32,000 nt of DNA from Saccharospirillum sp. (GTDB lineage: Bacteria > Pseudomonadota > Gammaproteobacteria > Pseudomonadales > Natronospirillaceae): the NCBI GenBank assembly GCA_022565595.1, contig JAIUML010000013.1, positions 56,348 through 88,347 on the forward strand, given 5' to 3'. Of the stretch, positions 546 to 17,674 are shown piece after piece; the stretch's first letter is position 1, and each line of letters opens with the position of its first letter. The position numbers and the translations under genes are program-made. The notes under the pieces are model-generated. The model was not told the origin of the DNA, did no database searches, and worked only from the letters and a program-made list of their open reading frames with translations.

Positions 546-2198
546 GTGAAACGTGATCTGGATGAGAATCTTCTAGCATTTCCAATCAACATTGGAGCCA
601 CACTAAAACATCTTCGCCAAGATATGAAGGATGACTGGTTCTATGATTCTGTACGGTATGAAGACCTTCTTTCAAGTGGTAAGAACCTCCACGAGATTCT
701 TTCACAAAACCTTGAGATAAACCATGGTGAATACAAGGCTGGTCATAAGGCTATATATGATGTTCCAAAAAGAGCGCTAGGGCTAAGGTATACATTGGAA
801 TTAGACTTTTATGATAGATTCCTGTACCAAGCGATTTGTAGCTACCTAATTCCATATTTCGATCCGCTCTTATCAAATCGTGTATTCAGTCATCGATACA
901 ATAAGTATGGTAAAGAGAAGTATCTTTTTAAACATCGAATTGAACTGTGGAATACGTTCGAGAACATTAGCCATCTTGCCTTAGTCGATGATAAAACCCT
1001 TTTGGTAACTGACCTTCTTAATTATTTTGAGCAAATATCAATAGATGCCATTGAAAATGCGTTTGTTGGAATGATATCTGAAATCGAAGCAACTGGGGCA
1101 GATAAAAATAAGATACGAAGCGCGGTAAGCACGTTGAGGGTATTGCTCGAAAAGTGGTGTTACAGCGAGAGGCATGGTTTACCACAAAATCGTGATGCAT
1201 CTTCATTTATTGCGAATGTGGTACTTGATGCGGTTGATAAAAGCATGGTCGATAAGGGGTATGATTACTTTCGCTATGTCGATGATATTAGGATTATATG
1301 CTCTGACGAATACCAAGCTAAAAGAGCGCTCAATGACCTTATTTTTGAAATAAGAAAGTTTGGCCTGAATATAAACTCAAAGAAAACTGTAATCCTTGAT
1401 AAGGATAGTGAAAATATTCAAGAGTTCTTTCCGAGCTCTGACGACACTATGACTCTTATCGATACTATGTGGAGGTCTAAGAGCAGGAAAGTAATCGCTC
1501 GGTCGATACCAGTATTATTTGATTTTCTAAAGAAACAAATAGATGAGGGAGAAACACAGAGCCGCCCTTTCCGTTACTGCATAAATCGATTTAAAACATT
1601 GATCTCATCAAACCTTTTTGACTCTAAATCAATTCTCGCCAGTGAGATTGCAGATACCCTAATTCGAGAATTTAGTAGGCAGCCAGTGTCTACTGATCAG
1701 TTTTGTAAGCTATTGATGGATTTGGATTTATCTAATGCGCAAAATCAATCAATCGCAAATTTTATAATGAATAGAGATGTCGCCATACATGGCTGGCAAA
1801 ATTATCACCTTATTTTGCTTATGGCGCATAAGAAATTCAAGGCTACTGACCTAGTGGAACACTGTAAAACTCTGGTTAGGCAAAGTGTTCTTAGTCCCGA
1901 AGTCCCTGCTTGTTTTATATATCTTGCTTCCATTGGTCTTGAAAGTGCCGTTGAAGATTTCATTGAGGATTTTAAGGAAACTTGGCCCTATCAGCACCAG
2001 AGGTACTTTTTGATTGCGCTTCAGAACACACCAAAGGAGAAACTGCAACCCATGTTCGGTAAGGTTGGATATCGTCTGCGGGGGACTGCGGCCAGATTGC
2101 AAAAGAGCAAAATTTTTAAAGGTGATACGGTGTACTTAAGGGATTTCAATACGACACTTATCGATGAAATATATGATGAGATATCTCCGTATGAGTAA
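546..2198 (+). CDS. Reverse transcriptase, stand-alone UG/Abi-like (defence-associated RT type) with an alpha-helical C-terminal half
   Basis: RT motifs occur in the correct order. Motif 1/2 is YDVPKRALGLRY. SHRY follows. Motif A is LLVTDLLNYFEQI. Motif B is GLPQNRDASSFIANVVLD. Motif C is FRYVDDIRII, with YVDD at nt 1275-1286. GLNINSKKT follows. About 220 C-terminal residues look helical. The start is uncertain: GTG at 546 or ATG at 624. Confidence 0.85.
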   Translation: MKRDLDENLLAFPINIGATLKHLRQDMKDDWFYDSVRYEDLLSSGKNLHEILSQNLEINHGEYKAGHKAIYDVPKRALGLRYTLELDFYDRFLYQAICSYLIPYFDPLLSNRVFSHRYNKYGKEKYLFKHRIELWNTFENISHLALVDDKTLLVTDLLNYFEQISIDAIENAFVGMISEIEATGADKNKIRSAVSTLRVLLEKWCYSERHGLPQNRDASSFIANVVLDAVDKSMVDKGYDYFRYVDDIRIICSDEYQAKRALNDLIFEIRKFGLNINSKKTVILDKDSENIQEFFPSSDDTMTLIDTMWRSKSRKVIARSIPVLFDFLKKQIDEGETQSRPFRYCINRFKTLISSNLFDSKSILASEIADTLIREFSRQPVSTDQFCKLLMDLDLSNAQNQSIANFIMNRDVAIHGWQNYHLILLMAHKKFKATDLVEHCKTLVRQSVLSPEVPACFIYLASIGLESAVEDFIEDFKETWPYQHQRYFLIALQNTPKEKLQPMFGKVGYRLRGTAARLQKSKIFKGDTVYLRDFNTTLIDEIYDEISPYE

Positions 2199-3747
2199 GG
2201 GAAGTACTGTATATTTCACGTATCAGAAAGACTTTTCTGAAAGCGGTAAAGATCGATACTTTATATATGACGGTGAGGCATTCTACGAAGTTTCTTCAGA
2301 AGAAGTTGTTGCACTTGATTGTTTCGTTGTAACTCATGATTTCTGGTTGATTTCTAGTTCGTTATTTAAAAAACATGGAAGCTTGCCCTCGAAAATTGTT
2401 GATGTTGTTTTGTTATCAAAGATATCGATCGGAGTGAAATCAATAGACGGAGATGTTCAGCCGTGGGATGTGTCAAAAACTATTAGACCACTATTCAAGG
2501 TTGTCGATGACTTTGATAGTTATATGGACATGTATTATCGGCGCAAAGATCTGGTTTTTGACGTGTACATGCTTTTTTCTCACAAGCTTGCCGAATATTT
2601 TGAGAAATTATCAGTCTTAGCAACAGATTCAGGAGAAATGGAAAGGTTTTATAGTTTGGAGCTCCCTGTCTTTAACAAGCTTACACTTTCAGCATGCAGA
2701 GGCATTCGAGTAGACAATAGTGCTGTTAGAAAGCAAAAGGACAATCTTAAATTGGACTTCTATCGGCAGCTTAAGTTGTTCGCTGAGAAGCATAAAGTGC
2801 TTTACGAACTTCCCAGTAAAGGGGATGCCAGGGAGAAATTGTCCAAGCTAGGATATAACGTTCAGGATTATAGTCTTGAGTTTTTGATTGATTTTCTGCC
2901 TTCGCGTGATGGCTATACCGATGATTTGCGAAGTCTTCAAAAGACGAATAAAGCCTATAGAGTATTTAATTCAATTTCGTATGGTTCTAGTCGACTGAGA
3001 CCAATAGTCGAATCACATTGGACTTCAACATCTAGAATATATCATAAGTCGCCAAACCTTCAGAATATACCAAAAAAGTATCGGAATATATTTATCCCCG
3101 ATGAAGGAATGTCTCTTTGTTATGTGGATTATGATCAGTTTGAAGTTGGCATTATGGCCGCGATTTCATCTGATCCGATAATGAAAGATATATATGAAAA
3201 TCGTGACGCCTATAAAGATTTAGCTGTTCAAGTTTTTAATGACGAGGGAATGAGGAAGAAAGCTAAAGTAATGTTTCTTTCTTACACGTACGGAATGTCA
3301 CTCGAAAATATTATTAGGGCTGTCAAAGAGTTGGGTGGGGATCAAAAAAATGCTCGCGAGTATTTTTCAGGGTTCACTGTATTTGAGTCATGGAAAGAGT
3401 CGGTAAATAATGCATTTTTGAAAAATGGGAAGATTGCGACTATTTCGGCTAATTATTTGAATAGAAATACAAATGCAGAATTAACTGATAAAGAGAAAAG
3501 GGCATCGGTCAATCATGTAATTCAAGGCACAGCCACATATATATTTAAGAGAGCGCTGTTAGAGCTTTCTAGTCTTGATGGTGTTCAAATTCTAATACCA
3601 ATGCATGATGCTGTATTATTTCAGCATACAAACCAAGTAGATCCTAATTCAGTGGTTGAATTATTTGAAGATGTAATGACTAAAGAGTTGTCCGGAAAGG
3701 TGTCTGGTAAGGCATCTATTGAAGCGTTTTATGAGAAAAATAATTGA
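2164..3747 (+). CDS. Family-A (Pol I/Klenow-like) DNA polymerase domain protein with no recognisable 5'-3' or 3'-5' exonuclease domain
   Basis: Pol A motifs are present. YSLELPVFNKLTLSACRGIRVD matches the thumb region. TSTSRIYHKSPNLQNIP has PNLQNIP at nt 3052-3072. Motif A is DYDQFEVGIMAAIS (from nt 3121). Motif B is RKKAKVMFLSYTYGMS. NHVIQGTATYIFKRAL follows. Motif C is IPMHDAVLF (nt 3601-3621). An alternative start, ATG 2191, lies inside ATGAGTAA and overlaps the RT stop, which would give translational coupling. Confidence 0.85.
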   Translation: MKYMMRYLRMSKGSTVYFTYQKDFSESGKDRYFIYDGEAFYEVSSEEVVALDCFVVTHDFWLISSSLFKKHGSLPSKIVDVVLLSKISIGVKSIDGDVQPWDVSKTIRPLFKVVDDFDSYMDMYYRRKDLVFDVYMLFSHKLAEYFEKLSVLATDSGEMERFYSLELPVFNKLTLSACRGIRVDNSAVRKQKDNLKLDFYRQLKLFAEKHKVLYELPSKGDAREKLSKLGYNVQDYSLEFLIDFLPSRDGYTDDLRSLQKTNKAYRVFNSISYGSSRLRPIVESHWTSTSRIYHKSPNLQNIPKKYRNIFIPDEGMSLCYVDYDQFEVGIMAAISSDPIMKDIYENRDAYKDLAVQVFNDEGMRKKAKVMFLSYTYGMSLENIIRAVKELGGDQKNAREYFSGFTVFESWKESVNNAFLKNGKIATISANYLNRNTNAELTDKEKRASVNHVIQGTATYIFKRALLELSSLDGVQILIPMHDAVLFQHTNQVDPNSVVELFEDVMTKELSGKVSGKASIEAFYEKNN

Positions 3748-3846: not shown

Positions 3847-3957
3847 TTAAGTGGCTACCCACTCACTATCATTCTTAACCATGGTGTTTAAAATGGTGAC
3901 CATTTTTCGCATACACGCAGTCAAAGCGACTTTTTTGTGCTTACCCTGCGCTACAGC
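3847..3957 (-). pseudogene. C-terminal remnant (~35 codons) of an IS110-family transposase, truncated at the terminal CRISPR repeat
   Basis: The minus-strand translation is AQGKHKKVALTACMRKMVTILNTMVKNDSEWVAT*, with the stop at 3847-3849. It resembles the conserved IS110/IS1111 transposase C-terminus of the form GKPKKVALVACMRKLLTILNAML(R/K)D..W. The frame hits a TAG inside the repeat immediately upstream, and no N-terminal part is present. Confidence 0.55.
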
Positions 3958-6900
3958 TGCCTATGCGGCAGTGAACGGCCGACCATGTAGCGACCACTGA
4001 TTTCGGCGTTTCTGAGCTGCCTATGCGGCAGTGAACAGTCTGCGCTCATACAATCCCCAACTGGCTCATTTCTGAGCTGCCTATGCGGCAGTGAACTCGG
4101 TCGAACTACTAAAATATTTCACTATTAATTTCTGAGCTGCCTATGCGGCAGTGAACCCTGCCGTAATTGTCACAAAAGCCTCCCCACTTTTCTGAGCTGC
4201 CTATGCGGCAGTGAACCCTTAGGGGCTTTGTAAACCCCTTTTAATATGTTTCTGAGCTGCCTATGCGGCAGTGAACGCGTTCCAGGTTACGCGCTTGTTC
4301 TTCAGTAATTTCTGAGCTGCCTATGCGGCAGTGAACGCGACTCAGCAGCCGATAGCAGGCCAAATAGGTTTCTGAGCTGCCTATGCGGCAGTGAACACCT
4401 ACACGCTCACCTATACGGTTATCTATCATTTCTGAGCTGCCTATGCGGCAGTGAACTTGATCAAACATGGATTCCAACTCAGCTTCACTTTCTGAGCTGC
4501 CTATGCGGCAGTGAACGCGTTTTGGGTGCAAATGAACTCAGCCCCAGGTTTCTGAGCTGCCTATGCGGCAGTGAACTTCACACCTATTTCATTCCCCGCA
4601 AGTCCGATTTTCTGAGCTGCCTATGCGGCAGTGAACCAGTAGTGTCTGGCGTTGTGAAGAATAGTTTATTTCTGAGCTGCCTATGCGGCAGTGAACTGAT
4701 AGGCGCTCGCGATCGTCGCCTGCGCGTTTTTCTGAGCTGCCTATGCGGCAGTGAACGGCGGCGTACAGTGCCGAGAACCTGATCAACTTTTCTGAGCTGC
4801 CTATGCGGCAGTGAACACAGTTGTCAGTGACACTGAGGTCAGCGGCACTTTCTGAGCTGCCTATGCGGCAGTGAACGGCTGACCAGTGGTAGCCTTTTGA
4901 TACACCACTTTCTGAGCTGCCTATGCGGCAGTGAACGTAATACAACAAGTGTCAATCTTTCTACTACTTTTCTGAGCTGCCTATGCGGCAGTGAACCCAA
5001 AGCCTATCTCACGTTCTACCTGTGTCATTTTCTGAGCTGCCTATGCGGCAGTGAACGAGGCTACGGCGGGGAGGTCTGCCGGGGCGGTTTTCTGAGCTGC
5101 CTATGCGGCAGTGAACGCCCTGGTTTCCGGCAACATCTACATCTTGCATTTCTGAGCTGCCTATGCGGCAGTGAACACACTTGAAGGCCCATAACGGGCC
5201 TCTTAAAGTTTCTGAGCTGCCTATGCGGCAGTGAACTCAAACATTTCACTTGCTACATCGGCTGCAATTTTCTGAGCTGCCTATGCGGCAGTGAACTTTA
5301 TGACAGAGTTCAATAACTACTGCTGGGCTTTCTGAGCTGCCTATGCGGCAGTGAACCCTATACGCCGGTAACCATGGCCGCCGCTGAATTTCTGAGCTGC
5401 CTATGCGGCAGTGAACCCTGAAAGCGAGTTTATCTATCTTGGGAAAGTTTTCTGAGCTGCCTATGCGGCAGTGAACGAATAGCAGCATCAGACCGAATAT
5501 CAATCAGCTTTCTGAGCTGCCTATGCGGCAGTGAACCCGTTTATGTACTGGCTATTAATTGATCTATATTTCTGAGCTGCCTATGCGGCAGTGAACGACG
5601 CCCGCTGACCCTGATCCAATCCTTTGATTTTCTGAGCTGCCTATGCGGCAGTGAACATACAGTGTTCCGCGTCCCCTTGACTGTACCCTTTCTGAGCTGC
5701 CTATGCGGCAGTGAACGATCTCTTTGGCTTTGCGCTCAGCTTCTTTGCTTTCTGAGCTGCCTATGCGGCAGTGAACGCTATGCCGTTAGGGTTCTGTTCG
5801 TTCCATGTTTTCTGAGCTGCCTATGCGGCAGTGAACGATAATTCAAGGTTGATACCAGTTGATGACTGTTTCTGAGCTGCCTATGCGGCAGTGAACCTAC
5901 CGGACGATGAGCGAGAATGGAGCCTTGATTTCTGAGCTGCCTATGCGGCAGTGAACTATCAATGCCTTTATCCGGTGACTCGCCAATATTTCTGAGCTGC
6001 CTATGCGGCAGTGAACATGTGGCAATATCGGTATCACCCAGATCAATATTTCTGAGCTGCCTATGCGGCAGTGAACTGCTGTCTCTGTCTGACCGCCTCT
6101 CTGCACCATTTCTGAGCTGCCTATGCGGCAGTGAACGCGCAAAACATATAACGGTGCGGAATAATGCCTTTCTGAGCTGCCTATGCGGCAGTGAACTTCG
6201 CCACGGTAGCGGATGGTGCGATTCTGTATTTCTGAGCTGCCTATGCGGCAGTGAACGTTCACCTTAGATCAGGTTTCGGGACAGCACATTTCTGAGCTGC
6301 CTATGCGGCAGTGAACGCGGCACCAATCCTCACCAGTCCAACGGCAACTTTCTGAGCTGCCTATGCGGCAGTGAACTCTCTATGTCTCGCTTAAACGCTA
6401 CATCGTCATTTCTGAGCTGCCTATGCGGCAGTGAACACAAGACCGAAGCGGCTATGGTCCATTACTGTTTTCTGAGCTGCCTATGCGGCAGTGAACAAGG
6501 CTTGACGATTCCTGAGCCGTTGCAGTGTTTTCTGAGCTGCCTATGCGGCAGTGAACTCGAAATGAATTCCGAGCCAGGTGCTGCTGATTTTCTGAGCTGC
6601 CTATGCGGCAGTGAACGAAGAAATTAGAACCCAGCCAGCGTGCGAGCTTTTCTGAGCTGCCTATGCGGCAGTGAACCGCGTCTTCTTCATTGATCAACTT
6701 GGAGTAAATTTCTGAGCTGCCTATGCGGCAGTGAACCTGGGCTTCGCTGTAATCCCCTACCCGGCCAATTTCTGAGCTGCCTATGCGGCAGTGAACGTAC
6801 GGTTGGTGTCTACCCTGACACTTCCACGTTTCTGAGCTGCCTATGCGGCAGTGAACCTATTGATCGTTCGATAGTTTTACCCTTTAATTTTCTGAGCTGC

Positions 6901-7996
6901 CTATGCGGCAGTGAACTATCCGCTTGACTCGGGTTTGTGGAGTGGCTTTTTCTGAGCTGCCTATGCGGCAGTGAACCACACTCCTTGAATGGCCAGTTGG
7001 CACCATTATTTCTGAGCTGCCTATGCGGCAGTGAACTGAACAAGACCGACAGAACACTCACTGTTTTTTTTCTGAGCTGCCTATGCGGCAGTGAACGCTA
7101 TAGCGCGAGCAATGAGCGATAACCCAACTTTCTGAGCTGCCTATGCGGCAGTGAACGCACAGGAAAGGCGTTTGTCGCTTATAGATTTTTTCTGAGCTGC
7201 CTATGCGGCAGTGAACATGGTCTGACTTTTTAACCAGTTTAAAACTCTTTTCTGAGCTGCCTATGCGGCAGTGAACGCTGTCGCCTTCACATCGTGCTTG
7301 TTATAGCTTTTCTGAGCTGCCTATGCGGCAGTGAACGAAAACTATCAGTTGATTGCTTATGCACTAATTTTCTGAGCTGCCTATGCGGCAGTGAACTCCC
7401 CCCAACCTTCGCGTATGATATCCTGCTTTTTCTGAGCTGCCTATGCGGCAGTGAACAGAATGGAACGCCTGTTTAACCGTAGCGCCCTTTTCTGAGCTGC
7501 CTATGCGGCAGTGAACTTGTCGCAACGCAATGGACTTTGCGGACCAGTTTTCTGAGCTGCCTATGCGGCAGTGAACTTGATGTACTCATAGAGTTCGTCG
7601 CTTCCGGCTTTCTGAGCTGCCTATGCGGCAGTGAACGTTTCAGGGTGTGCGTTTGTGGGTGTTTTTGTTTTCTGAGCTGCCTATGCGGCAGTGAACCTCC
7701 CCGCTGGTTGCGTCGTATTCCTGCCCTTTTTCTGAGCTGCCTATGCGGCAGTGAACACAATACGCACACATTTGGTGATTTTGCTAGCTTTCTGAGCTGC
7801 CTATGCGGCAGTGAACACGGGGATGTAACAGGCGACATTGCGGTCACTTTTCTGAGCTGCCTATGCGGCAGTGAACTTGACGACTTCAATCACTTTATTG
7901 ATTCTCTTTTTCTGAGCTGCCTATGCGGCAGTGAACCAGAGCCAGACCCGGCTGACGTTATTGCATTGTTTCTGAGCTGCCTATGCGGCAGTGAAC
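3949..7996 (-). CRISPR. Type I-F CRISPR array with 68 repeats and 67 spacers
   Basis: The 28-nt repeat is GTTCACTGCCGCATAGGCAGCTCAGAAA on the minus strand. It differs at 2 positions from the P. aeruginosa I-F repeat as I recall it. The period is exactly 60 bp, so every spacer is 32 bp. I checked 67 identical repeats line by line (4009...7969). The trailer repeat at 3949-3976 is degenerate in its outer 6 nt. Orientation follows the repeat sequence and the adjacent cas6f and leader at the high-coordinate end. Confidence 0.98.
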
Positions 7997-8128: not shown

Positions 8129-8692
8129 TTAGAACCAGGGGATAGTCGCCCCCTTGCTCAACCCGTAGCTTGAAAATGCACCGGGTTGCTCAGCGGTCAG
8201 GGGCTCCCCCTGGTCAATGAATAGCTTGAACAGCTCTCCTGTGCTTCTACTGCTCAATGTTGCAAAAGGCAGGTTGCTTTTTTGCTCAATTGAGATAGGA
8301 ATAGCCTGGGCTGCTTGTTCGTACGTTTCCCCTTTTCGTTTCATCCGCCTTCGCCTGAGCCGTTCTGCATTGGACTTCACTTGACGGCGTTGCACAATAC
8401 GGTGCTTGGCTTCTGCCGGAACAGGTTGAGGCGTATTGCATATTGCGTGATCAGACATACCCAAAAGCCATCGTTTTTCCATCAATTGATTGAGCCGCTG
8501 TTCATTACCGTGAAGCCGCAAGCGGCCTCCCAGGTTACGAGGCGATAAACTGTAGTCTGGAAAGCTGATGCCAATGTCTGTCGCTTCCATTTCGACCAAA
8601 GCCCGGTGAAGCTTGCTGATCAAGGCATTCATCAGCATGGGAGCACCAAACTCGGGGTCGGGTCGCAATTGTATTTCCAGATAATGGTCCAT
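8129..8692 (-). CDS. cas6f: Cas6f (Csy4) crRNA endoribonuclease
   Basis: MDHYLEIQLRPDPEF...GLSKGATIPWF is collinear with P. aeruginosa Csy4 as I remember it (MDHYLDIRLRPDPEF...GLSKGGFVPWF). I chose ATG at 8692 rather than the TTG at 8698 in the ORF track. Confidence 0.95.
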   Translation of the reverse strand: MDHYLEIQLRPDPEFGAPMLMNALISKLHRALVEMEATDIGISFPDYSLSPRNLGGRLRLHGNEQRLNQLMEKRWLLGMSDHAICNTPQPVPAEAKHRIVQRRQVKSNAERLRRRRMKRKGETYEQAAQAIPISIEQKSNLPFATLSSRSTGELFKLFIDQGEPLTAEQPGAFSSYGLSKGATIPWF

Positions 8693-8694
8693 AA

Positions 8695-9732
8695 TCAACC
8701 GGCCTCCCCGAACACGCCTCCGCGAATGAGCGTGGCGATAACAAAGTGCTGGTTACCCTCATCGGGCTGCTCATCTTTCAGCACCCAGCGGTCCAGCAAG
8801 GTATAGAAATCTGCCTTGTCTTTGGGTTGGCGATAAGCTTTACCCTGGGTGGTAACAGAGCCATAAGGCTCCACTGCGATGGGGCCAAGGTCTTTCCCTT
8901 CGTCATCTGGGTACCAGGTGTCGATGGTGCGAATGGCATTGCCGATTTTTTGTGAATGAATACCCGCAACATCCTGGACCGAGTAGAGTGTCCGGCTCTT
9001 GGAGCCTTTATCGCGGCCTAGTATTAGCTCTTGAGAGGGGAACACTTCCTGGCCAGCACCCATGCGGGCAAAGGCGATGACTTCCAGTAAGGCATGACTA
9101 CTGCCAGACAACCCTTGTTCCACTTGTTGTGCGAGCTGCTCAATCTGCTGAGCATTGTTGCCTTCTGCAGAAAAGTTTCGCGTGGGGCAAGTAAGGGCAT
9201 CGAAAGTCCAGCGTTGTGCCTCGGTGCCCTGTGTGAGTTGTCGTACATGGACTTCAACCTGCTCTGCACCGAATCGGTTACGCCACAAAAAGCGGCCATT
9301 GGCCAGGTTGATAGCATAACGCCTGGCTACTTCACCGAACCCATGGCTGGCGATGTATCCATCCACCACCTCTTTCAACTTGGCTTGATAGTCTGCATCG
9401 TTGCAGGAAGAGGGCGTGCCTGCGCCTGCCAAAACCCTCAAGGTGAAGCGAACCATTAGGGTGTCGGCATCGCTAGGCAAAGTAGCAACATCGACGGTTT
9501 GCAGGTTGGGGTTTTCTATAGCAGCATCGAGTTTGGCAGCATCCTGATCTTTGGCTTTTAACCTGTTGGATATCGTCCCCCGAACGGATTTCTCCCTCAC
9601 ATTTATGGGTTGCCAATTATCCAGTTGGTCTCGTTGGTCCCAGTTCCCGGCATACAAGAGTGCATCCGAAACATCCAGTTTGCGTTCGAATGCCAGAACC
9701 GAGGCGGTTTTCAATACAGTTGGCTTAGTCAT
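8695..9732 (-). CDS. csy3: Csy3 (Cas7f) Cascade backbone subunit
   Basis: [25 protein letters not shown]...[11 protein letters not shown] closely parallels P. aeruginosa Csy3. ATG 9732 sits 1 nt after the csy2 stop (TGAcATG). The 34-codon N-terminal extension in the ORF track overlaps csy2 and I rejected it. Confidence 0.95.
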
Positions 9733-9733
9733 G

Positions 9734-10702
9734 TCAGATCTCCTGTACTTCGTGGTGGTTTTGCTGTTCATTAACGTTTTGCAAGCGGTACATACCTTGA
9801 TCGAGGTCATTCTCGACGTACCACAGCAGTTCACTTGGATGTTTTAACCGATGGGGGCTGATCCACTGGCCAATTGAATACAAGCTTTCTACGAAGCGAA
9901 AAGGCGTGGTGGCATCACGAGCATTGGCAACCACTCCAGGTTTGTACAACTCAGAAAGCTTCGAGTATCCGACCGGGATTGGCACCAGCCAACCCGGCTG
10001 CATACGAATCTGCCATTCCACCTCTCCTTTATCTTCCTCACACTCCATGTTCAGTCGGGATAGGTCGAGCCAGGCGTCCAGTTGAGTGACTTCGGGATCT
10101 TGAGCGGCCATGCTCTGGAAGTGGCTTTGCAGCAAGTCATCACGCAGAACCAGGGCAAAACCTGGCATCAAGCGACGTCGTAGTGACAGGAAATCCTTAT
10201 ATTGCTCTGCTGAGTCCTCGGGTATTTTCGATATATAAGGTGACGGAGCCCTGGTACCCGGCATAGGTGGTACAATGACACCTCCGGCAATCCTCATGGT
10301 CTGCAATATTTGGTTGAGACTTTCGGCGACTTGCTGCTTGTCTTCTTTACTGCCCGAGAGGTCTGCGCCTCGTATGCCAAAGGCCAGGCTGATATCAAGA
10401 TGAATGCGCCCCTCTTCGACAATGGCTGAGGTCTTGCCGGTCTTGTCTACCGGATTCCGAGTCAAATTGAAAGTACGGACAAAACCGCCTCTGGAAACCT
10501 GAGCCTCGTGGTGGTGGCATACGACGCCAATACCATCGAACAGCACATTGATGCCAGCGGCAATGGCCTTTCGTTCCAGTGCCTGCATGATGCCGACAAA
10601 GGCACTCATGGCCGGGAATCCCCAGGTCAGGTTGCTGGAAATGGTGTTGGCATTTTGAACACGCAGGCGTGGTATAACCAATAAATTGCTGAGGTCTGTC
10701 AT
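9734..10702 (-). CDS. csy2: Csy2 (Cas5f)
   Basis: The segments [37 protein letters not shown] and [10 protein letters not shown] parallel P. aeruginosa Csy2. It overlaps csy1 by 4 nt (ATGA). Confidence 0.93.
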
Positions 10703-11991
10703 ACCAGCACCTCCCTGAAAAAGTTTAAACGACTACTGATATGGCTTAGCCACTCCTTGTGTTCGGAATCACCTACGGGTAAATCGCGAAGTTGGTGGTT
10801 TACCCATTTTGCGAATCGGTCTTCGATTTGTGCGGGCCATTCCATGCGAACCCTTTGAGCCAGGAAGACTTCATCTGTTTCACCTCGCCAGGCATCCAGC
10901 CAGAGCTTTTCGGCATCTGCTAACCGGCAGTTTTCATCGGCAGACCAGCCCGGTTCGAGCAGATCAAATCGTGCAGCATAAACGACCAGTTCCTCGATCA
11001 GGGCATTAATGAATTCATCGACCTTGTCGCGAGTACCCATATTGGGCTGTGGGTTACTCTTCAGGAACTTGAGCAGGTTGCGGGTGAGCCATTGCACTTC
11101 TCGCTGACGACCAAAGCGAGGAAAAATGGAATCGGTATGCAAGGGTGGGTTGATCGGATTAGAGCGCCACTGGGGTGGTAGTGAAGCCAATAGATAATTG
11201 GTGCCACCTCGTTCACTATTGAGTTGGGAGATGTTCTGTGGCTTGGTTCCTCCCAGCTTTTGTACTGCCAGATTGGGGTAGTCGCTGTAGCCGTTTTCAG
11301 AATGCTTCTTGTCCTTCTTGGCTTGCCGAGCGGCTTTCGCTGCCTCTCCGAATCGGTCTTCCTGAATATGTTGGTAGAGTTGATGCACCAGTGATGTAGG
11401 ATAGAGAGGGGCCAAAAGGTGGTACTGGCTGTCGTCAGTTGGATCATCACCGGTCAGCCAGTATATTTGCTTGGCTCGGGTGCTGGAGGCTTCTGTGCCT
11501 TTGGGTTCTACAATGGCGGCGAATGCAGCCGTTTGTTGTTGAGCAATTTCCGCGTCATTGTTCATTGCTTCAACGAACTGAGGGTCATTTTCTAGTGCCA
11601 TGTCCAGCAGCGTACGGCCGTTGAGTTCCAGCTTGAGGAATTTATAGACGTCCAATGCAGCTGCGTTGCCAACGACATCAGCCGAATAGTTGCTCTTGAG
11701 CAGGTGGCTACTGACCTGGTTGGCTTTTGGTAGGGAGTCTGGCGTTACAAAAAGGTTGGTGCCTTTTGCATCCGGATGAATGGCTTTTAGAGAGTGAGTA
11801 ACAACCTGAAGCTGGGTAACCCGGCGTGCGGCATCCGCTATCCAGGTTTCGTACTCAAGCTGTTGTTGGGTTTCTTGGTATTTCGGGTCGTCGGGTTTGA
11901 GCTTTTCGAGTTTGGTAGCGAGACGTTCGTTCAGAAAGGTTTGTATCAACCCGCGTACGTCCGTGCCCCTCTCAGTGTTTGAGTTGGCCAT
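10699..11991 (-). CDS. csy1: Csy1 (Cas8f) large subunit
   Basis: Its position and size (430 aa) match the first gene of the csy1-4 block. It has an AAGGAAG Shine-Dalgarno 5 nt upstream of the ATG. It is coupled to csy2. Confidence 0.88.
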   Translation of the reverse strand: MANSNTERGTDVRGLIQTFLNERLATKLEKLKPDDPKYQETQQQLEYETWIADAARRVTQLQVVTHSLKAIHPDAKGTNLFVTPDSLPKANQVSSHLLKSNYSADVVGNAAALDVYKFLKLELNGRTLLDMALENDPQFVEAMNNDAEIAQQQTAAFAAIVEPKGTEASSTRAKQIYWLTGDDPTDDSQYHLLAPLYPTSLVHQLYQHIQEDRFGEAAKAARQAKKDKKHSENGYSDYPNLAVQKLGGTKPQNISQLNSERGGTNYLLASLPPQWRSNPINPPLHTDSIFPRFGRQREVQWLTRNLLKFLKSNPQPNMGTRDKVDEFINALIEELVVYAARFDLLEPGWSADENCRLADAEKLWLDAWRGETDEVFLAQRVRMEWPAQIEDRFAKWVNHQLRDLPVGDSEHKEWLSHISSRLNFFREVLV

Positions 11992-12246
11992 AAGTCTTCC
12001 TTAGCCCGGCATGGGCTTTTAAAAGAGGGTATGGCACAATGGTGACCGTTCAAGAAAGGCCACCATTGTGCTTTTTGGTATTGGGCGAGATTCTCGCCAC
12101 TAATGTCTTCTAATGACGCAATAGCCAATCACGCTCTGTTACCTCCTTTCTTGTGCGGGGCTGACAAGATCAGCTGGCTGTATTGCCGTACAGCCGGTTC
12201 TAGTCTCTTGCTTACAGCTCAACCCTGATGGGTTGGGCTGTACTCT

Positions 12247-12274
12247 ATAATATGGTAAAAGCTTGACTTGTCAA
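12247..12274 (-). promoter_or_regulatory. Near-consensus sigma70 promoter reading toward csy1
   Basis: On the minus strand, TTGACA (12274-12269), a 16-nt spacer, then TATTAT (12252-12247). The -35 box is one arm of the perfect palindrome GCTTGAC-TT-GTCAAGC (12261-12276). Confidence 0.5.
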
Positions 12275-12275
12275 G

Positions 12276-12301
12276 CCTTAGTGTTCTCAAGTTTTATTAA
12301 A
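12276..12301 (+). promoter_or_regulatory. Predicted Csy-complex binding site: CC PAM plus a partial protospacer matching the psi-spacer at 12392-12415
   Basis: CC lies at 12276-12277. It is followed by TTAGTGTTCTCaAGTTTt, against psi-spacer TTAGTGTTCTCtAGTTTc. Positions 1-11 and 13-17 match, positions 12 and 18 do not, and the match decays after 19. Confidence 0.5.
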
Positions 12302-12363
12302 TAACTATTTGCTGGATATGAAGGAAGTAGATATTGTTGAATAAGTAGTTAAAATACGTTCGC

Positions 12364-12443
12364 AATTACTACTGCCTAAGTAGCTTAGAAATTAGTGTTC
12401 TCTAGTTTCAAACTAAAAGACTGCCGAATAGGCAGAAATTTTG
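12364..12443 (+). ncRNA. Degenerate mini-CRISPR (psiR1, 24-nt psi-spacer, psiR2) encoding a crRNA-like RNA of the CreA/CreR class
   Basis: psiR1 (12364-12391) matches the array repeat at 19 of 28 positions without gaps. It keeps a 5-bp/5-nt hairpin through two compensatory pair changes and keeps the handle CTTAGAAA. psiR2 (12416-12443) matches at 15 of 28 and keeps ACTGCCGaATAGGCAG. It is oriented opposite to the cas genes and is followed by a strong terminator. Confidence 0.6.
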
Positions 12444-12470
12444 AGCCAGTTTTCTGGCTCAATTTTTTTT
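12441..12470 (+). terminator. Intrinsic terminator for the plus-strand mini-CRISPR transcript; its hairpin also lies just past the convergent cas2-3 stop
   Basis: TTGAGCCAG-TTTT-CTGGCTCAA is followed by TTTTTTTT on the plus strand. On the minus strand the same hairpin starts at the cas2-3 stop codon but has only a weak AATTTCT tail. Confidence 0.65.
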
Positions 12471-15400
12471 CGTGAAACCCAAGTTTGGATGAAAACGCCA
12501 GCCACTTTCATTACTGGTTAAACTTATGGTTCCAAACTTTAATGCACAAAATTTTAATTCCAGCTCCATTTCTTCGGATAATTTTTCCAGTGTCTCCAAA
12601 TAATTTGGATCACCCCATGGCGAAATGCCTTTTTCCGGTGCCATTTCTAGGCGTTCCAAAAGATTGTTCACTGGGGCGTAGAGGTCTTTTTTTTGCTTCC
12701 GATCAAAGCTAATCTCGAACAAGTCAAAATCATCCTCATCTTCATTTGGTAGTAGCACCAGATCCGTACTCTCTATTGGGTCTTCCCGAAAAGGTCTCCA
12801 TTTCTGCAGTAAAGCGGTCAAATTGACCTGCGGTTGGCTATGCCAGCTATAAGCCCCCAATTTGGGCGCTGCGAATTCTTGACCAAGAGCTCGTTGCTCC
12901 CTTGGACTTAACGGCTTGAATTCAGGCTCTATCATCAGTCTATCCAACCGAGCATGCTCCAGGTCCACCAGGCTGGACTTGGGGTGCAGTGGCACTCGAG
13001 GCACTATGCGTGGACGTGAATCAATCGTCTCACGTTCTTCGGGTTCAAGGAGTTGATCCATCTCATGAGTTGTGAGTTTCCATTCTCCGTTGTCTTCAAA
13101 GCCTGGCCTGCAAAAGGCGGCTTCGCCTTTGAGCTCCAATGCCCTCAGGTTGGTCTTTAACAGAAATATATTGGCCAGCTCACAAGGTTCGAATCGATGT
13201 CGACGAACCCGACCGGCAAGCTGGATCAGAGATCTCATGGATGACGGTTCGACAATGGCCCAGTCGTAGTCGTGGTCCCTGCCTACCTCTGTAACGGGTG
13301 AGCCAAGTACTATAAGCAGATGGTCTGATTCCGGGTGGGCGTCGATGCGAGTGCGGATATCCTCGAGTTTGAACACGGAATCGGGGTCGCTCCGATTAAG
13401 GGCCTGGTCGAGCCTGCGCTCTATGGCAGAGCGCAACAGCAGGGGGTACTGGGAGTGGTATACGCAAAGGTGAATGTGAACCCCCTCGGGGGCGCCTAAC
13501 CGATAGAGGTTTTGGGCTACTTCGACTAGAGGTTCTATGTTGGCCATGCGGATCAGGCCAAAACTAACTCGCTTGTTGCTGTGGGGGTCTGTGCAGTGGT
13601 GGCGTTGGTGCAGTGTTAGAGCGCCTTTTAGCAGGTCTTCAGCCAGGGAAGCACGTAGGGTTTCCTTGGTACCTTGGCACACGCTGATAGGGTAGATCTC
13701 TGTGCGTCTTCTTGCAGTTTCTTCGGCCAGCTTTTGGCAGCGTTTTTGGGCGAAAGCATTGTGTATTTGTAGAAAGGTTTCAGAATCTGGGCAGCTCTGA
13801 TGCTGTTGGCCGTGTTCATCGAACCAGGCACAACAGGTGGAGAACACCTGGTTCGGTTCTCCTCTGTTGCGTTGGTATTCTTCACGCCCGGCCCGATAAG
13901 CATTAAATAGGCCCTGTACGAGAGCTGGCGGTAATGTCGCGGAGGAAAGCAATACTTTGGTTCCTAGGAGGCCTGCCCAATGGACGAGTCGGGTGAGGGC
14001 TGGCAAGTCACTCAGGTCGAAGTCGTCTATTTCATCGAGTACCAGGTCGCTGCTGAGCAAGCGCAACATGGGGGCAATCTGGCGGCCGCCTCGATCGCCT
14101 TCTGTTGCAGGGATTAAATGGTCGACGGTGCATACCAGAATGGGCGCAGAGAGTAGCGGTTTGATCTTGTCGTTGTGTGAGGTGGCCTTTAAAAGCGGGT
14201 GCTGGCTGAAGTTGCCTTCGTAGTGAACGTGGCTATCTTCTTCCATCAAGGCCTGGTTGGAAGCGGAACCGGTTTTTTCGGCTTCTGCCTCGTAGTGTTC
14301 GAAGAGCTTGCGGCTGGCGCTACCGCCGACGCGAACTGCAAGGTCATCGTCGTTCAGGTTCAGTCTGTCTCGGTAGGCCTGGCCGGTTTGCAGCGTCAGG
14401 GTGCGTAAGCCCAGTGCAATGGAAAAGCGGGCGCCTTTGGCCGGGTTGGAGAGAGCGTAAAGAATGCGGCCGTTGGCCAGTGTTTTACCACAGCCTGTTG
14501 AGGCCATGTTAATACCAAAGAACCCTTGGCTCTCGGCCAGGTCGCGTATGCCCTCGGCTAGGTCGAATGCTTTATCCTGCCAGCGAAAGCGTGGGTCTTT
14601 GCTGCGCTGTCTGAAACCTTTGTGTCGGGCCAGCCGCGGCAGGTTGTTGGTCAGGGTGGTGAGGTGGTAGCTCACTTCTCGGCTGACTTTGGCAACACCG
14701 AGCAGGTGTTCATCCAGTTTCTGGCAGAGCTCTCCGGTTTTACGAATGGTATTGGCGTAGAGCGGGTATTCCTTGTCGCCCGTTACGCGGTCTGCACTGG
14801 CTGTCAGGCTTGAGTAGTGGTGGTCGGCCAGCATCAGTGAGAGCCGAGCCAGGTGCATGACATAGGTGTTGGCGAGCCAGCCTCTGGGTTCGTTGTCTTG
14901 CCGTTCCAGCAAGCGTGTTGCGTATTTGGCCGCTTGAGTACGCCACTTGGTTGTGATGACGGGTAAGGGTTTGCTGAATGTCCAATAGGGTTTCATGGCT
15001 TTGGGTTCTGCACCTTCGTAGAGCTGATTCCAGTCTGCCTGGATGTTACCAGGTAAACCGATAAGGCTCTCACCGCTGATCTCTTTGCGCTCGGGCATGG
15101 CCGGTAGGCGATGATGCGTCAGTATCAGCCAGCCAACGGCGGCGGCCAGAGGTGGCAGGTGGCGAAAAGGGTTGCCGTCAGCCGCATCGATTCCGTCTTT
15201 TTGCAGTCGGTCTTTCCAGGTTTTGTCATCGGCCTTTGAGGGGTTTGCCAGTCGTTTGAGCCAAACGTCATCTGAATCGTTGCCGACAAAGGCCTGAAAT
15301 AGCCTCAGAGATATCCATTCGTGCCGGTAAATATTTGGGCCTGGGTCGTTTGTGCCCAGCAAGCGTTTCTGGAAAGCACTGCAGGCTTTGCCCAGGTCGT

Positions 15401-15767
15401 GCATCAAGGCCGAGAGTGCAGCGAATAGTTTGATGTCTTCGGCAGTGTGCCAGTCGTTTTCGTCTTCGCGGCGTACAATATTACGTTTTGTGGTGTTGGT
15501 GGGTACGGAACCTTCGGTATTGAACCGGCTGGAATCGCCAACAATCCAGAGTAGCTCGCTGTGATCTTTGCCCCGAATCCAGTGACAGGAAACCGCTGTG
15601 TTTTTTCGAGCCGTTCTGCGCAGCAGTTTGCGTAAGGTATTGAGCCCTTCGTAAGTAATGGGGGTTTGCCAGGTGCGGTCACCTCGGCGTTCAGCAAATT
15701 GATCCAAAATGCGTCGGGTCTCAGTCAGGGCGTTCTTGTTGCATTGGGAGATCAACAAAATATTCAT
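12459..15767 (-). CDS. cas3: Cas2-3 fusion (Cas2 domain, HD nuclease, SF2 helicase), type I-F
   Basis: The protein is 1102 aa. It has an N-terminal Cas2-like segment, an HD motif (LMHDLGKACSAFQ), Walker A (ASTGCGKT) and a DExD-like box (LVLDEIDDF). It overlaps cas1 by 4 nt. Confidence 0.95.
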   Translation of the reverse strand: MNILLISQCNKNALTETRRILDQFAERRGDRTWQTPITYEGLNTLRKLLRRTARKNTAVSCHWIRGKDHSELLWIVGDSSRFNTEGSVPTNTTKRNIVRREDENDWHTAEDIKLFAALSALMHDLGKACSAFQKRLLGTNDPGPNIYRHEWISLRLFQAFVGNDSDDVWLKRLANPSKADDKTWKDRLQKDGIDAADGNPFRHLPPLAAAVGWLILTHHRLPAMPERKEISGESLIGLPGNIQADWNQLYEGAEPKAMKPYWTFSKPLPVITTKWRTQAAKYATRLLERQDNEPRGWLANTYVMHLARLSLMLADHHYSSLTASADRVTGDKEYPLYANTIRKTGELCQKLDEHLLGVAKVSREVSYHLTTLTNNLPRLARHKGFRQRSKDPRFRWQDKAFDLAEGIRDLAESQGFFGINMASTGCGKTLANGRILYALSNPAKGARFSIALGLRTLTLQTGQAYRDRLNLNDDDLAVRVGGSASRKLFEHYEAEAEKTGSASNQALMEEDSHVHYEGNFSQHPLLKATSHNDKIKPLLSAPILVCTVDHLIPATEGDRGGRQIAPMLRLLSSDLVLDEIDDFDLSDLPALTRLVHWAGLLGTKVLLSSATLPPALVQGLFNAYRAGREEYQRNRGEPNQVFSTCCAWFDEHGQQHQSCPDSETFLQIHNAFAQKRCQKLAEETARRRTEIYPISVCQGTKETLRASLAEDLLKGALTLHQRHHCTDPHSNKRVSFGLIRMANIEPLVEVAQNLYRLGAPEGVHIHLCVYHSQYPLLLRSAIERRLDQALNRSDPDSVFKLEDIRTRIDAHPESDHLLIVLGSPVTEVGRDHDYDWAIVEPSSMRSLIQLAGRVRRHRFEPCELANIFLLKTNLRALELKGEAAFCRPGFEDNGEWKLTTHEMDQLLEPEERETIDSRPRIVPRVPLHPKSSLVDLEHARLDRLMIEPEFKPLSPREQRALGQEFAAPKLGAYSWHSQPQVNLTALLQKWRPFREDPIESTDLVLLPNEDEDDFDLFEISFDRKQKKDLYAPVNNLLERLEMAPEKGISPWGDPNYLETLEKLSEEMELELKFCALKFGTISLTSNESGWRFHPNLGFTKKN

Positions 15768-16741
15768 GCGACACTCTCTTCCATCTGAACAGCGATGGTT
15801 TTCAAACTGTCTATCATGAAATCCAATGATTCAGAACGGGTCAGCACTTCGATGCAGTTCTGACGAAACTCCTGTTCGCTTTCGCCACGAATGGCCGAGA
15901 TAAAAGCCTGGGGGAGAATGGCAGCGTCTTTCACTAGGTCGGCGACATCAAACACCAATCCACCACGTCGGGTTTTACCGTGCAGTACAGCGAGCCCGTG
16001 TGGTAGCCCAAGCACCCAGGTGGCCGTGGCGGCCAGGCCATAGGCTAGGTAGTTGCCGTGATCCAGGAATCGGTTGGCAGGGTCGGTACCCGTGCCCCGT
16101 TTGGCTCGAGTAAAGTCGCCATAGCCACTGGCCAGGATGGCGAGCTTAAAGAGTACTTTGGTTAAACGGGCTTCTTCCGTTAACAGAAAGGTGACATCGG
16201 GCGCGTCCATAACTTTGGTACGACTGCGCTCGATGGCATGACCTAATTGTGCCTTGTCGACTTCAAATCCCGCGTCTTGTAAGCGGCGGTTGTCCGTCCA
16301 GGTGGCCATGATTCTATCCAGCCTTGCCATCTGTATGGCTTTGGCGGCCTGCAAGCGTTTTTCGTCATCAAACCAGAAGCCTACCCATTTTTGCAGGTAT
16401 TCGGTGGGGCGGTACTCACTTTGAGGTGTAAGCCAGGCTGCGTCGATGTCTACTTCGCTAGCGCTAAAAAGAGGGGTGCCACCACCGCCGCAAAATCCGA
16501 CGAGTACACCGGCCTTGGCCAGTTCGCGCATGGCGGCCTGGGTAATGGAGGTGCCTGTGCCCAGCAACAAGGTAGTGGTGTTGGCGATGGGGATGTTCCA
16601 ATAGAGAGACTGCTTGCCTTCATCCGTGACGTATTCTACCCGGCCACCCTTAACCAGCACTCGGCAGTGCTGCAAGTAATAAATATTGGCACGCTTGGAA
16701 TGCAGAATGGTTTTCAGATCCGTAGGGGAAAAATCGTCCAT
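15764..16741 (-). CDS. cas1: Cas1 integrase, type I-F
   Basis: MDDFSPTDLKTILHSKRANIYYLQHCRVLVKGGRVEYVTDEG...GTGTSITQAAMRELAKAGVLVGFCGGGGTPLFS is near-collinear with P. aeruginosa I-F Cas1 as I remember it. An AAGGAGAG Shine-Dalgarno lies upstream. Confidence 0.97.
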   Translation of the reverse strand: MDDFSPTDLKTILHSKRANIYYLQHCRVLVKGGRVEYVTDEGKQSLYWNIPIANTTTLLLGTGTSITQAAMRELAKAGVLVGFCGGGGTPLFSASEVDIDAAWLTPQSEYRPTEYLQKWVGFWFDDEKRLQAAKAIQMARLDRIMATWTDNRRLQDAGFEVDKAQLGHAIERSRTKVMDAPDVTFLLTEEARLTKVLFKLAILASGYGDFTRAKRGTGTDPANRFLDHGNYLAYGLAATATWVLGLPHGLAVLHGKTRRGGLVFDVADLVKDAAILPQAFISAIRGESEQEFRQNCIEVLTRSESLDFMIDSLKTIAVQMEESVA

Positions 16742-16840: not shown

Positions 16841-17674
16841 TCAATAAAGCCACCGCCTCACCTTGTCATAATTAGCCAGTACCAACTGCTGCGCCTCCGG
16901 GCTTCCATCCAGCATTTTGGTGTTTACCTGCAGGTCTTGCAGGGTGTATTGGGCCAGGGCGGCTCGGGTTTTTATGGTCAGAGTGTCGTTTTGCATTTGG
17001 TAATCCTGGGCGAGGATCTGTCGCTTTTCTTGACTCAACCTGGGGTCGGGCTGAATGATCAGGTCGATCCAGGTTTGCCAGTCGGTGTCCTGGTCTGCTG
17101 TTCGTTCGCTTGCATCCATCAACTCGGGTTCGCCGCGAAAGCGGCTGAGTACGAAGTCTCTGTAGGCCTGGCTTTTTTCACACCAGGCGCGTACGTGCCA
17201 GCGTAACCCGGTGTTCACCAGTGTATGGGGTGCGATCACTCGGCCTTCGGTATCGGCACTGGTTACCGAGAGGTATTCGACGTCCAGGCGTCGGTTCTCG
17301 CGCAGGGCGGTGACTATGGGGCGTATGATGGTGGGTGAAATAAGGCGCGGTGGGTGCTGTATTGTTTGAAAGGGTATCTGATGGTCGGTTGGGGCGGTGC
17401 TGATGCCGGTTAGCCAGTTCAGGTATTCGCTGACATCGCCCGAGAGGTGCTGCGGTTGAAAGTGCTCTGTCGGCTCATAGCATTTGTTGGCGGGGTTGTA
17501 GGCGAGTTGATCGGAGTAGGCTTCCCGGTATCGGGAAAGCTGCTGGCTGGCCGCCTGGCGGGTGATGCCGAAGTAGCGCGTCAAGGGCCCGGTGTTCACT
17601 CTGCCTTCCCACCAGGCATTCAACTCGATAAACCAGTCGTATTGTCGGCGATGTTCCATTGCCATGGTCTGCAC
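16841..17674 (-). CDS. HTH plus WYL-domain transcriptional regulator, co-oriented and immediately upstream of cas1
   Basis: The N-terminus has an HTH-like LTRYFGITRQAASQQLSRY. The central region, RVIAPHTLVNTGLRWHVRAWCEKSQAYRDFVLSRF, is typical of WYL domains. Confidence 0.75.
   Translation of the reverse strand: MQTMAMEHRRQYDWFIELNAWWEGRVNTGPLTRYFGITRQAASQQLSRYREAYSDQLAYNPANKCYEPTEHFQPQHLSGDVSEYLNWLTGISTAPTDHQIPFQTIQHPPRLISPTIIRPIVTALRENRRLDVEYLSVTSADTEGRVIAPHTLVNTGLRWHVRAWCEKSQAYRDFVLSRFRGEPELMDASERTADQDTDWQTWIDLIIQPDPRLSQEKRQILAQDYQMQNDTLTIKTRAALAQYTLQDLQVNTKMLDGSPEAQQLVLANYDKVRRWLY

Follow-up and report, generated by a model that had tools for sequence, protein, structure and literature searches.

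A predicted CreTA module of the Acinetobacter WCHA45 kind between cas2-3 and csy1 of a Saccharospirillum type I-F1 CRISPR locus

[quoted passage not shown] The 467 bp that separate cas2-3 from csy1 in this system (11992-12458) are best read as an inserted CreTA module of the kind found in Acinetobacter WCHA45, where CreA represses PcreT (PMC10097628); we put the probability of this reading at about 80%. The module would consist of a degenerate mini-CRISPR, creA, on the plus strand and of a divergent creT leader on the minus strand. The reading is carried by the anatomy of the sequence, by conservation and covariation across a family of related loci, and by an in-register match to an experimentally tested toxin. 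In addition, the arrangement of the promoters suggests that creA may autoregulate the csy genes. An initial annotation, made from the letters alone, had proposed a gene for a CRISPR RNA (crRNA)-like RNA of the CreA/CreR type on the plus strand. The sequence tests supported it as to creA; it had not seen the CreA target, the divergent promoter or the toxin gene.

The CRISPR array of the window comprises 68 repeats (3949-7996, minus strand) with the unit GTTCACTGCCGCATAGGCAGCTCAGAAA. Comparison with this repeat and the feature scan agreed with the initial annotation in placing four elements opposite the cas operon: a degenerate repeat, psiR1 (AATTACTACTGCCTAAGTAGCTTAGAAA), at 12364-12391; a 24-nt spacer-like guide, psiS (TTAGTGTTCTCTAGTTTCAAACTA), at 12392-12415; a second degenerate repeat, psiR2, at 12416-12443; and an intrinsic terminator, consisting of a 9-bp stem and T8, at 12441-12470. 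This terminator overlaps the end of cas2-3 on the opposite strand, in its final codons and stop. psiR1 is identical to the array repeat at 19 of 28 positions and at 9 of its last 10 nt. It contains a Cas6f hairpin, CTACT/AGTAG (12369-12383), and the 8-nt 5' handle CTTAGAAA (12384-12391). Relative to the repeat stem CTGCC/GGCAG, the psiR1 stem differs by two compensatory pair changes, as originally proposed, while C6-G20 and T7-A19 are unchanged. psiR2 lies on the same strand, 52 nt from psiR1. It has kept the hairpin CTGCC-GAATA-GGCAG (12421-12435) and matches the repeat core ACTGCCGaATAGGCAG at 15 of 16 positions and the handle at 0 of 8, which bears out the handle loss described earlier.

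The predicted plus-strand fold contains the psiR1, psiR2 and terminator hairpins (z = -5.2). An Rfam search of the intergenic region returned no match over threshold; a sub-threshold match to CRISPR-DR4 (18.4 bits against a gathering score of 35) covered exactly 12364-12391 on the plus strand. As a control for chance, we used 60 first-order Markov simulations of the window. At least one site with 19/28 identity occurred in 20% of the simulated windows. By contrast, neither a handle matching at 9/10 or better together with a 5-bp stem nor a 15/16 core match occurred in any of the 60. From the repeat register, Cas6f cleavage after G20 in psiR1 and in psiR2 would leave a mature CreA of 52 nt (12384-12435): the 8-nt handle, the 24-nt guide and, at the 3' end, a 20-nt hairpin.

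Comparison of the guide with the window located a CreA target on the plus strand, with a CC protospacer-adjacent motif (PAM) at 12276-12277 and the protospacer at 12278-12301. The guide matches protospacer positions 1-11, 13-17, 19 and 24. Among the first 19 positions, it mismatches at 12 and 18; positions 20-23 are mismatched as well. This 18/24 match is the single such site in the window. CC is the PAM of type I-F systems, and every sixth position is non-pairing in I-F complexes (PMC10097628; 10.1101/2023.03.03.530964; 10.64898/2026.06.02.729485). With positions 12 and 18 set aside, pairing is complete over 19 positions and then ends, so the Csy complex should bind this site without licensing cleavage by Cas2-3. 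A scan of viral contigs for phage mimics of CreA, using the handle plus seed GAAATTAGTGTTCTC, gave 29 matches, none of them in a repeat-like context.

The target lies next to a strong predicted sigma-70 promoter on the minus strand, TTGACA (12274-12269)-16 nt-TATTAT (12252-12247), whose -35 box begins one base from the CC PAM. The promoter scan scored this site, the predicted creT promoter, at 11 of 12 positions and found no other promoter-like site on the minus strand between cas2-3 and csy1; it is probably the csy promoter as well. Because no other promoter was predicted before csy1, and because the large hairpin at 12035-12070 has no adjacent U-tract, we infer read-through from the creT promoter into csy1-cas6f, which would make CreA a possible csy autoregulator. 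On the plus strand, a predicted creA promoter, TAGATA-16 nt-TAAAAT (12328-12355), ends 8 nt before psiR1. Of the 60 loci described below, 32% have a TATAAT-like hexamer (at least 5/6) shortly before psiR1, compared with 13% in the shuffled controls.

By the distance from the CreA target to csy1, leaders fall into a short class (about 110 nt or less) and a long class (220-300 nt), and the window, with 285 nt, belongs to the latter. Its 250-nt leader facing csy1 carries, in order, a 5' hairpin, a Shine-Dalgarno (SD) sequence, a 33-nt mini open reading frame (mini-ORF), a short hairpin and a hairpin with a 13-14-bp stem, all on the minus strand. The 5' stem-loop (12214-12241) is at the predicted start of the creT RNA and has equivalents in related leaders. 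The SD sequence, AAGGAGGT (12141-12148), lies 8 nt upstream of the start codon of the mini-ORF, GTG ATT GGC TAT TGC GTC ATT AGA AGA CAT TAG (12100-12132). A start-codon hairpin (12134-12116), indicated by covariation and energy, consists of the pairs G1-C15, U2.G14, G3.U13 and A4-U12 around the 7-nt loop UUGGCUA. Codons 8-9 are a tandem AGA AGA (12111-12106); AGA is the second-rarest of the 61 codons in the window.

Just past the mini-ORF stop is the hairpin GGCGAGA-A-TCTCGCC (12084-12098), with a hairpin at the equivalent spot in related loci. It is followed by the hairpin with the 13-14-bp stem, CACAATGGTGGCC...GGTCACCATTGTG (12035-12070), with CTCTTTT 9 nt later; G+C-rich hairpins occupy the equivalent spot in related loci. 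This second hairpin is probably a 3'-end stabiliser or a leaky terminator before csy1. The fold of the leader (12241-12020) reached -84 kcal/mol, far better than shuffled sequences (z = -5.6). In many long-leader loci (here numbered L029, L036, L063, L069, L110 and L120), a short ATTCTA-like motif follows the G+C-rich hairpin at the 3' end of creT; the window has CCATACCCTCTTTT there.

These elements were compared with creT of Acinetobacter, whose mini-ORF reads ATG TTT AGC ACG CAT TTA ATC AGA AGG GTC TGA in WCHA45 and ATG TTT GGC ATA CAT TTG GTT AGA AGA GTC TAA in ANC 3789 (supplementary table, PMC10097628). The toxicity of WCHA45 CreT requires the SD sequence, the start codon, a hairpin (nt 1-15, 2-14, 3-13 and 4-12) and its 7-nt loop, of which nt 5-9, UUAGC, may pair with 23S ribosomal RNA (PMC10097628). 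The window shares with both Acinetobacter sequences the SD spacing, the length and register of the 33-bp mini-ORF, the pairing of the start codon with codon 5 and Arg-Arg at codons 8-9. Its loop nt 5-9, UUGGC, are identical to those of ANC 3789, and the pattern UURGC is common to the WCHA45 type. At -2.7 to -4.9 kcal/mol, the start-codon hairpin of the window is more stable than the toxic WCHA45 hairpin (-0.7 kcal/mol). The likeness extends to the whole module: in WCHA45, it is a cas3/csy1 intergenic module of ~400 bp, missing in reference strains, in which creT is divergent from creA, and creA has two degenerate repeats with CTTAGAAA retained in psiR1, a short guide, and a partially matching target with a CC PAM. 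The window differs in its start codon (GTG rather than ATG), in the length of its guide (24 nt as opposed to ~20 or 31 nt) and in its host, the published homologues being all from Acinetobacter.

To place the module in a family, we scanned one genome per species for the pattern AGCTNAGAAA, 20-32 nt, CTGCCNNNNNGGCAG, the spacing of which shuts out ordinary arrays. The pattern fixes A19 and G20 and leaves C6 and T7 free. As it is silent on location, strand, target and promoter, those features are independent observations. The scan yielded 59 I-F loci from other species with a mini-array in the cas2-3/csy1 gap, 57 of them with the mini-array on the strand opposite the cas genes. In the 60 loci that include the window, a CC-flanked seed of at least 11 was present in 63%, nearly always between the mini-array and csy1, and in 0 of 1200 shuffled spacers. 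In many of these loci, the window among them, a -35 box resembling TTGAC/TTGAT comes 0-4 nt after the PAM. Between locus L042 (Vreelandella) and its kin L125 and L130, position 9 changes from A to C in spacer and target alike.

The psiR1 stem covaries across the 60 loci, in keeping with the compensatory changes proposed for the window. In this alignment, 98.3% of cells are paired and 36 are double-changed, values reached by 0 of 500 shuffles. The first inner pair is G-C in 42 loci, A-U in 9 and G-U in 6; the second is C-G in 52 and U-A in 8; and the third is C-G in 41 and U-A in 18. The two changed pairs of the window, A-U (9 loci) and U-A (18 loci), are the commonest non-consensus variants at their positions, and its CTACT/AGTAG stem was found again in several unrelated loci. 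C6 was kept in 57 and T7 in 58 of the 60 loci.

The distribution of the module is patchy. Of the Csy1 relatives found, the seven closest are all metagenomic and 61-92% identical; a gap of 7-47 bp separates their cas2-3 from csy1, and the Cas2-3 C-terminus and the Csy1 N-terminus align across the junction with those of the window. Judged from these alignments, the 467-bp region, which has a G+C content of 42% against 53% for the window, is an insertion absent from all seven. The nearest named relatives of the window Csy1, from Oceanimonas and Halomonas, are ~60% identical to it. A scan of genome contigs with the single Csy1 protein gave no confirmed relative, and blastn of the intergenic region gave no match in plasmids; in the fetched loci, it hit nothing beyond repeat-like pieces and, weakly, the surroundings of the SD sequence. 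The metagenome scan with AGGAGGN7GCRTGATTGGCTAY had six matches, of which two were real (L125 and L130); both are kin of L042 and neither is near the window module.

The initial annotation had named absence from related loci as a ground for rejecting the gene. The module is indeed missing in the seven nearest relatives. This leaves the claim standing, for what those relatives lack is the intergenic region in its entirety, an insertion in the window, and in published accounts a patchy distribution is the rule. The cas3-csy1 region of the Acinetobacter and Pseudomonas aeruginosa CreTA modules is absent in the reference strains AYE and PA14 (PMC10097628; 10.64898/2026.06.02.729485), and ~28% of I-F1 loci have a cas3-csy1 gap of >200 bp (10.1101/2023.03.03.530964). 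Long leaders arranged like that of the window were found in Halomonas, Vreelandella, Salinicola, Azoarcus, Thauera, Zoogloea, Comamonas, Tahibacter and others. These comparisons suggest that WCHA45-type creT is spread well outside Acinetobacter, in the Halomonadaceae, the Betaproteobacteria, the Xanthomonadales and the uncultured lineage of the window.

The start-codon hairpin was examined in an ungapped alignment of 25 family members. Overall, 80% of cells are paired, compared with 66% in shuffles, and 0 of 500 shuffles equalled the alignment. Pair 1-15 is G-C in 17 sequences and A-U in 7; sequences that begin with ATG have CAT as its partner, and those that begin with GTG have CAC, CGC or TGC. 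At pair 4-12, A-U occurs in 8, G-C in 6, U-A in 4 and U-G in 3. Three leaders stood out in other respects. In L073, a metagenome-assembled genome (MAG) of Melaminivora, the mini-ORF is intact and in register, but its start codon is replaced by GTA and the hairpin cannot form; this toxin may be inactivated. L030, from a MAG labelled Polyangiaceae, has ATG CCT CCT CCA TAG after an SD-like site, which is the proline-codon design of P. aeruginosa on a differently labelled contig. L038 has 363 nt between the CreA target and csy1 without the family mini-ORF, and contains a stretch that looks by eye like a transfer RNA (tRNA; GGTGACGCGATGGCCGAGCGGTCAGGC...TTCGAATCTCGGTCGCGTC).

Codons 8-9 of the mini-ORF showed a further regularity. 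Each of the 21 non-Acinetobacter family members has the same amino acid encoded twice in a row there (at codons 6-7 in L116). The pairs seen are AGA AGA, AGA AGG, AGG AGA, ATA ATA, TTA TTA and TCA TCA; most repeat the same codon and none mixes amino acids. The two codons switch in concert between lineages (L029, L042, L055, L105, L073, L118, L034 and others), which resembles the swap of AUA for AGA in the tRNA-sequestering CreT of haloarchaea. They are usually among the locally rarest codons, by ranks computed from a few kilobases per locus: TTA is the rarest of the 61 codons in three loci, AGA stands at ranks 1-13 and ATA at ranks 2-4; L118 (ATA, rank 19) and L034 (TCA, rank 10) depart from this. 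In the WCHA45 study, synonymous changes had an effect at codons 2, 3 and 5 only, and the Arg pair is not mentioned (PMC10097628); within the literature searched, we found no mention of the tandem pair or of WCHA45-type creT outside Acinetobacter. With the odds somewhat against it, we tentatively propose that codons 8-9 are a second selected determinant of WCHA45-type CreT, in a toxin family that reaches beyond Acinetobacter. The pair might add to toxicity, beside the published start-codon hairpin, by sequestering a rare tRNA or stalling ribosomes; or the mini-ORF might, in the manner of a leader peptide, make read-through into csy1-cas6f depend on how much of a rare tRNA is available.

By analogy with the tested systems, the module would operate as follows. 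creA would be transcribed from the 12328-12355 promoter and end at the 12441-12470 terminator. Cas6f would cut after G20 of both degenerate repeats, and the resulting 52-nt crRNA-like RNA would load the Csy complex. The guide-loaded complex would then bind 12276-12296 without licensing cleavage and, abutting the -35 box of the 12274-12247 promoter, would block it. From that promoter, creT would be expressed as a structured RNA of ~200 nt with a strong ribosome-binding site, the mini-ORF, the rare AGA pair and 3' hairpins. If the Csy complex were lost or blocked by an anti-CRISPR, creT would be derepressed and translation would arrest. Read-through from the creT promoter would feed csy1-cas6f and place the effector genes under CreA feedback.

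Several observations weigh against this interpretation. The 19/28 identity of psiR1 is not significant by itself, and the predicted creA promoter scored 9 of 12 in the promoter scan. The mini-ORF shares just ~55% of its 33 nucleotides with the Acinetobacter ones, so that the case for homology comes from register and features rather than from a sequence score of any significance. Nor is the geometry of repression the same: the CreA target of WCHA45 is downstream of the creT transcription start, while that of the window is upstream of the -35 box. AGA is rare in the window, yet not extreme, at 5.5-5.7 per 1000 codons. Part of the pairing in the start-codon hairpin could be due to codon constraints, and three of the 25 sequences in that test (L118, L034 and L106) had come through a filter demanding pairs 1-15, 2-14 and 3-13; pair 4-12 was never filtered. 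Finally, the seven closest Csy1 relatives have no such module, and neither the fetched loci nor the metagenome scan contained a close homologue of this particular one.

The main rival is that creA is purely a CreR-type autoregulator. CreR RNAs of types I-B, I-E and V-A, as outlined in 10.1101/2023.03.10.532045, are encoded by degenerate mini-CRISPRs, have limited guide complementarity to a cas promoter and mediate autorepression. In the window, the Csy complex would then repress the csy promoter, and the 250-nt leader would be a structured 5' untranslated region with no toxin. The targeted promoter is the only one predicted upstream of csy1 and probably also drives csy1-cas6f, and the hairpins follow cas2-3. 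Moreover, Shmakov et al. took the analogous element of P. aeruginosa YL84 as a regulator of the Cascade operon (10.1101/2023.03.03.530964), and many related loci have leaders of 110 nt or less, too short to hold creT. However, the window leader holds every experimentally defined WCHA45 toxin determinant, in register. Long-leader loci form a distinct class bearing the mini-ORF, and reviews describe CreR as generally uncoupled from a toxin gene. With a creT-type element between promoter and csy1, the window locus does not fit the pattern of a toxin-free CreR. We consider a regulator with no toxin improbable, although it is the strongest of the alternatives, and it overlaps the CreTA reading, which admits both roles.

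It is far less probable that the element is a decayed, non-functional remnant of an array or a repeat insertion, with a coincidental target and mini-ORF. The chance-level identity of psiR1 and the absence of the element from the nearest relatives would fit such a remnant. It would not account for the handle with its stem and the psiR2 core, each absent from every simulation; for a CC-flanked seed over 19 positions that is unequalled in the window and of a sort absent from the shuffled-spacer controls; or for the layout and stem covariation common to 59 other species. Least probable of all is that the hairpins at 12421-12435 and 12441-12462 are mere minus-strand terminators of cas1/cas2-3 and psiR1 is incidental: the scan does flag CTGCCTATTCGGCAG, with TCTTTTAGTT after it, as resembling a minus-strand terminator, and the stem at 12441-12462 overlaps the stop codon of cas2-3, but a terminator role is compatible with creA rather than a replacement for it, and leaves the handle, the PAM-flanked match between guide and target and the repeat-identical hairpin unexplained.

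Other forms of toxin were considered and rejected. The protein toxin of CrePA in A. baylyi comes from an ORF of ~100 aa that encodes a KilAC domain. Within the 467-bp intergenic region or across its edges, no ORF exceeds 60 aa, and neither that one nor another of 41 aa has a Pfam match. A proline-codon CreT of the P. aeruginosa type was rejected because the mini-ORF contains no Pro codon. A nine-codon ORF, stop included, on the plus strand (12319-12345; ATG AAG GAA GTA GAT ATT GTT GAA TAA, MKEVDIVE) was dropped as a creT candidate: it has no SD sequence, it lies across part of the predicted creA promoter, and nothing in related loci corresponds to it. It is probably due to chance.

The CreTA reading, by contrast, has close parallels in published I-F elements. 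That such versions exist, which the initial annotation had left open, is clear from Wang et al. 2023 (PMC10097628), Shmakov et al. 2023 (10.1101/2023.03.03.530964) and a 2026 preprint on P. aeruginosa (10.64898/2026.06.02.729485). The CreTA1, CreTA2 and YL84 elements of P. aeruginosa occupy the same intergenic position, with a mini-array opposite to cas3, guides of 20 or 26 nt, a CC PAM, every-sixth mismatches, a target upstream of the -35 box and, as the toxin, an SD sequence with a mini-ORF and a hairpin. They differ in their toxin, a 15-nt ORF that acts through a pair of proline codons ahead of the stop; in place of Pro-Pro, the window has the WCHA45-type hairpin and AGA AGA. Mature CreA1 and CreA2, assumed to be 48 and 54 nt, were seen on northern blots, and small RNA sequencing confirmed the 54-nt CreA2 (10.64898/2026.06.02.729485). 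Repression exceeded 90% with a target ~30 bp upstream of the -35 box, and the CreTA1 promoter is common to the adjacent cas genes (10.64898/2026.06.02.729485). In YL84, repression of the target promoter requires Cascade and not Cas3 (10.1101/2023.03.03.530964). Overall, the CC-PAM self-target beside a promoter, the covariation of psiR1, and agreement with these elements in position, strand, short spacer and loss of the psiR2 handle sustain the identification of a crRNA-like RNA gene on the plus strand.

A more distant parallel is the type I-B CreTA of Haloarcula hispanica and Halobacterium hubeiense, in which a crRNA-like antitoxin represses an RNA toxin, and close homologues swap AUA for AGA (PMC8501985). 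The likeness is one of design only: strong initiation, a mini-ORF with a pair of adjacent rare codons (AGA or AUA), and a stem-loop downstream. The host is archaeal and the system, of type I-B, uses Cas6b; the sequences are unrelated, and no start-codon hairpin is described for those modules.

The surrounding cas operon lies on the minus strand and comprises cas1 (15764-16741), cas2-3 (12459-15767), csy1 (10699-11991), csy2, csy3 and cas6f (8129-8698). All six matched NCBIfam models far over the cut-offs. In the array, the terminal repeat (3949-3976, minus strand) is degenerate in its last 6 nt (GTTCACTGCCGCATAGGCAGCTGTAGCG), and the other 67 repeats are identical. Directly upstream of cas1, 16841-17674 (minus strand) encodes a 277-aa WYL-domain protein with no NCBIfam match. 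WYL regulators are frequent companions of CRISPR loci, and this one may be a second layer of cas control. Just past the trailer end of the array, 546-2198 (plus strand) encodes a 550-aa reverse transcriptase (Pfam RVT_1). The end of this gene is overlapped by 2164-3747 (plus strand), whose 527-aa product has a family-A DNA polymerase domain. Together the two may be a defence-associated reverse transcriptase system.

The window locus is probably a further CreTA example, from an uncultured lineage, of the kind described in Acinetobacter and Pseudomonas. The family comparison suggests that Acinetobacter-type CreT is much more widespread than the published list of homologues, which is confined to Acinetobacter, and it brings out a conserved tandem rare-codon pair that the mechanistic study of WCHA45 left unaddressed. 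For the organism, the I-F system of this genome is probably addictive: loss of Csy function by mutation, insertion sequence or anti-CRISPR should free a translation-arresting RNA. The effector genes are probably under guide-RNA feedback as well. Both properties bear on attempts at deleting, repurposing or inhibiting this CRISPR system.

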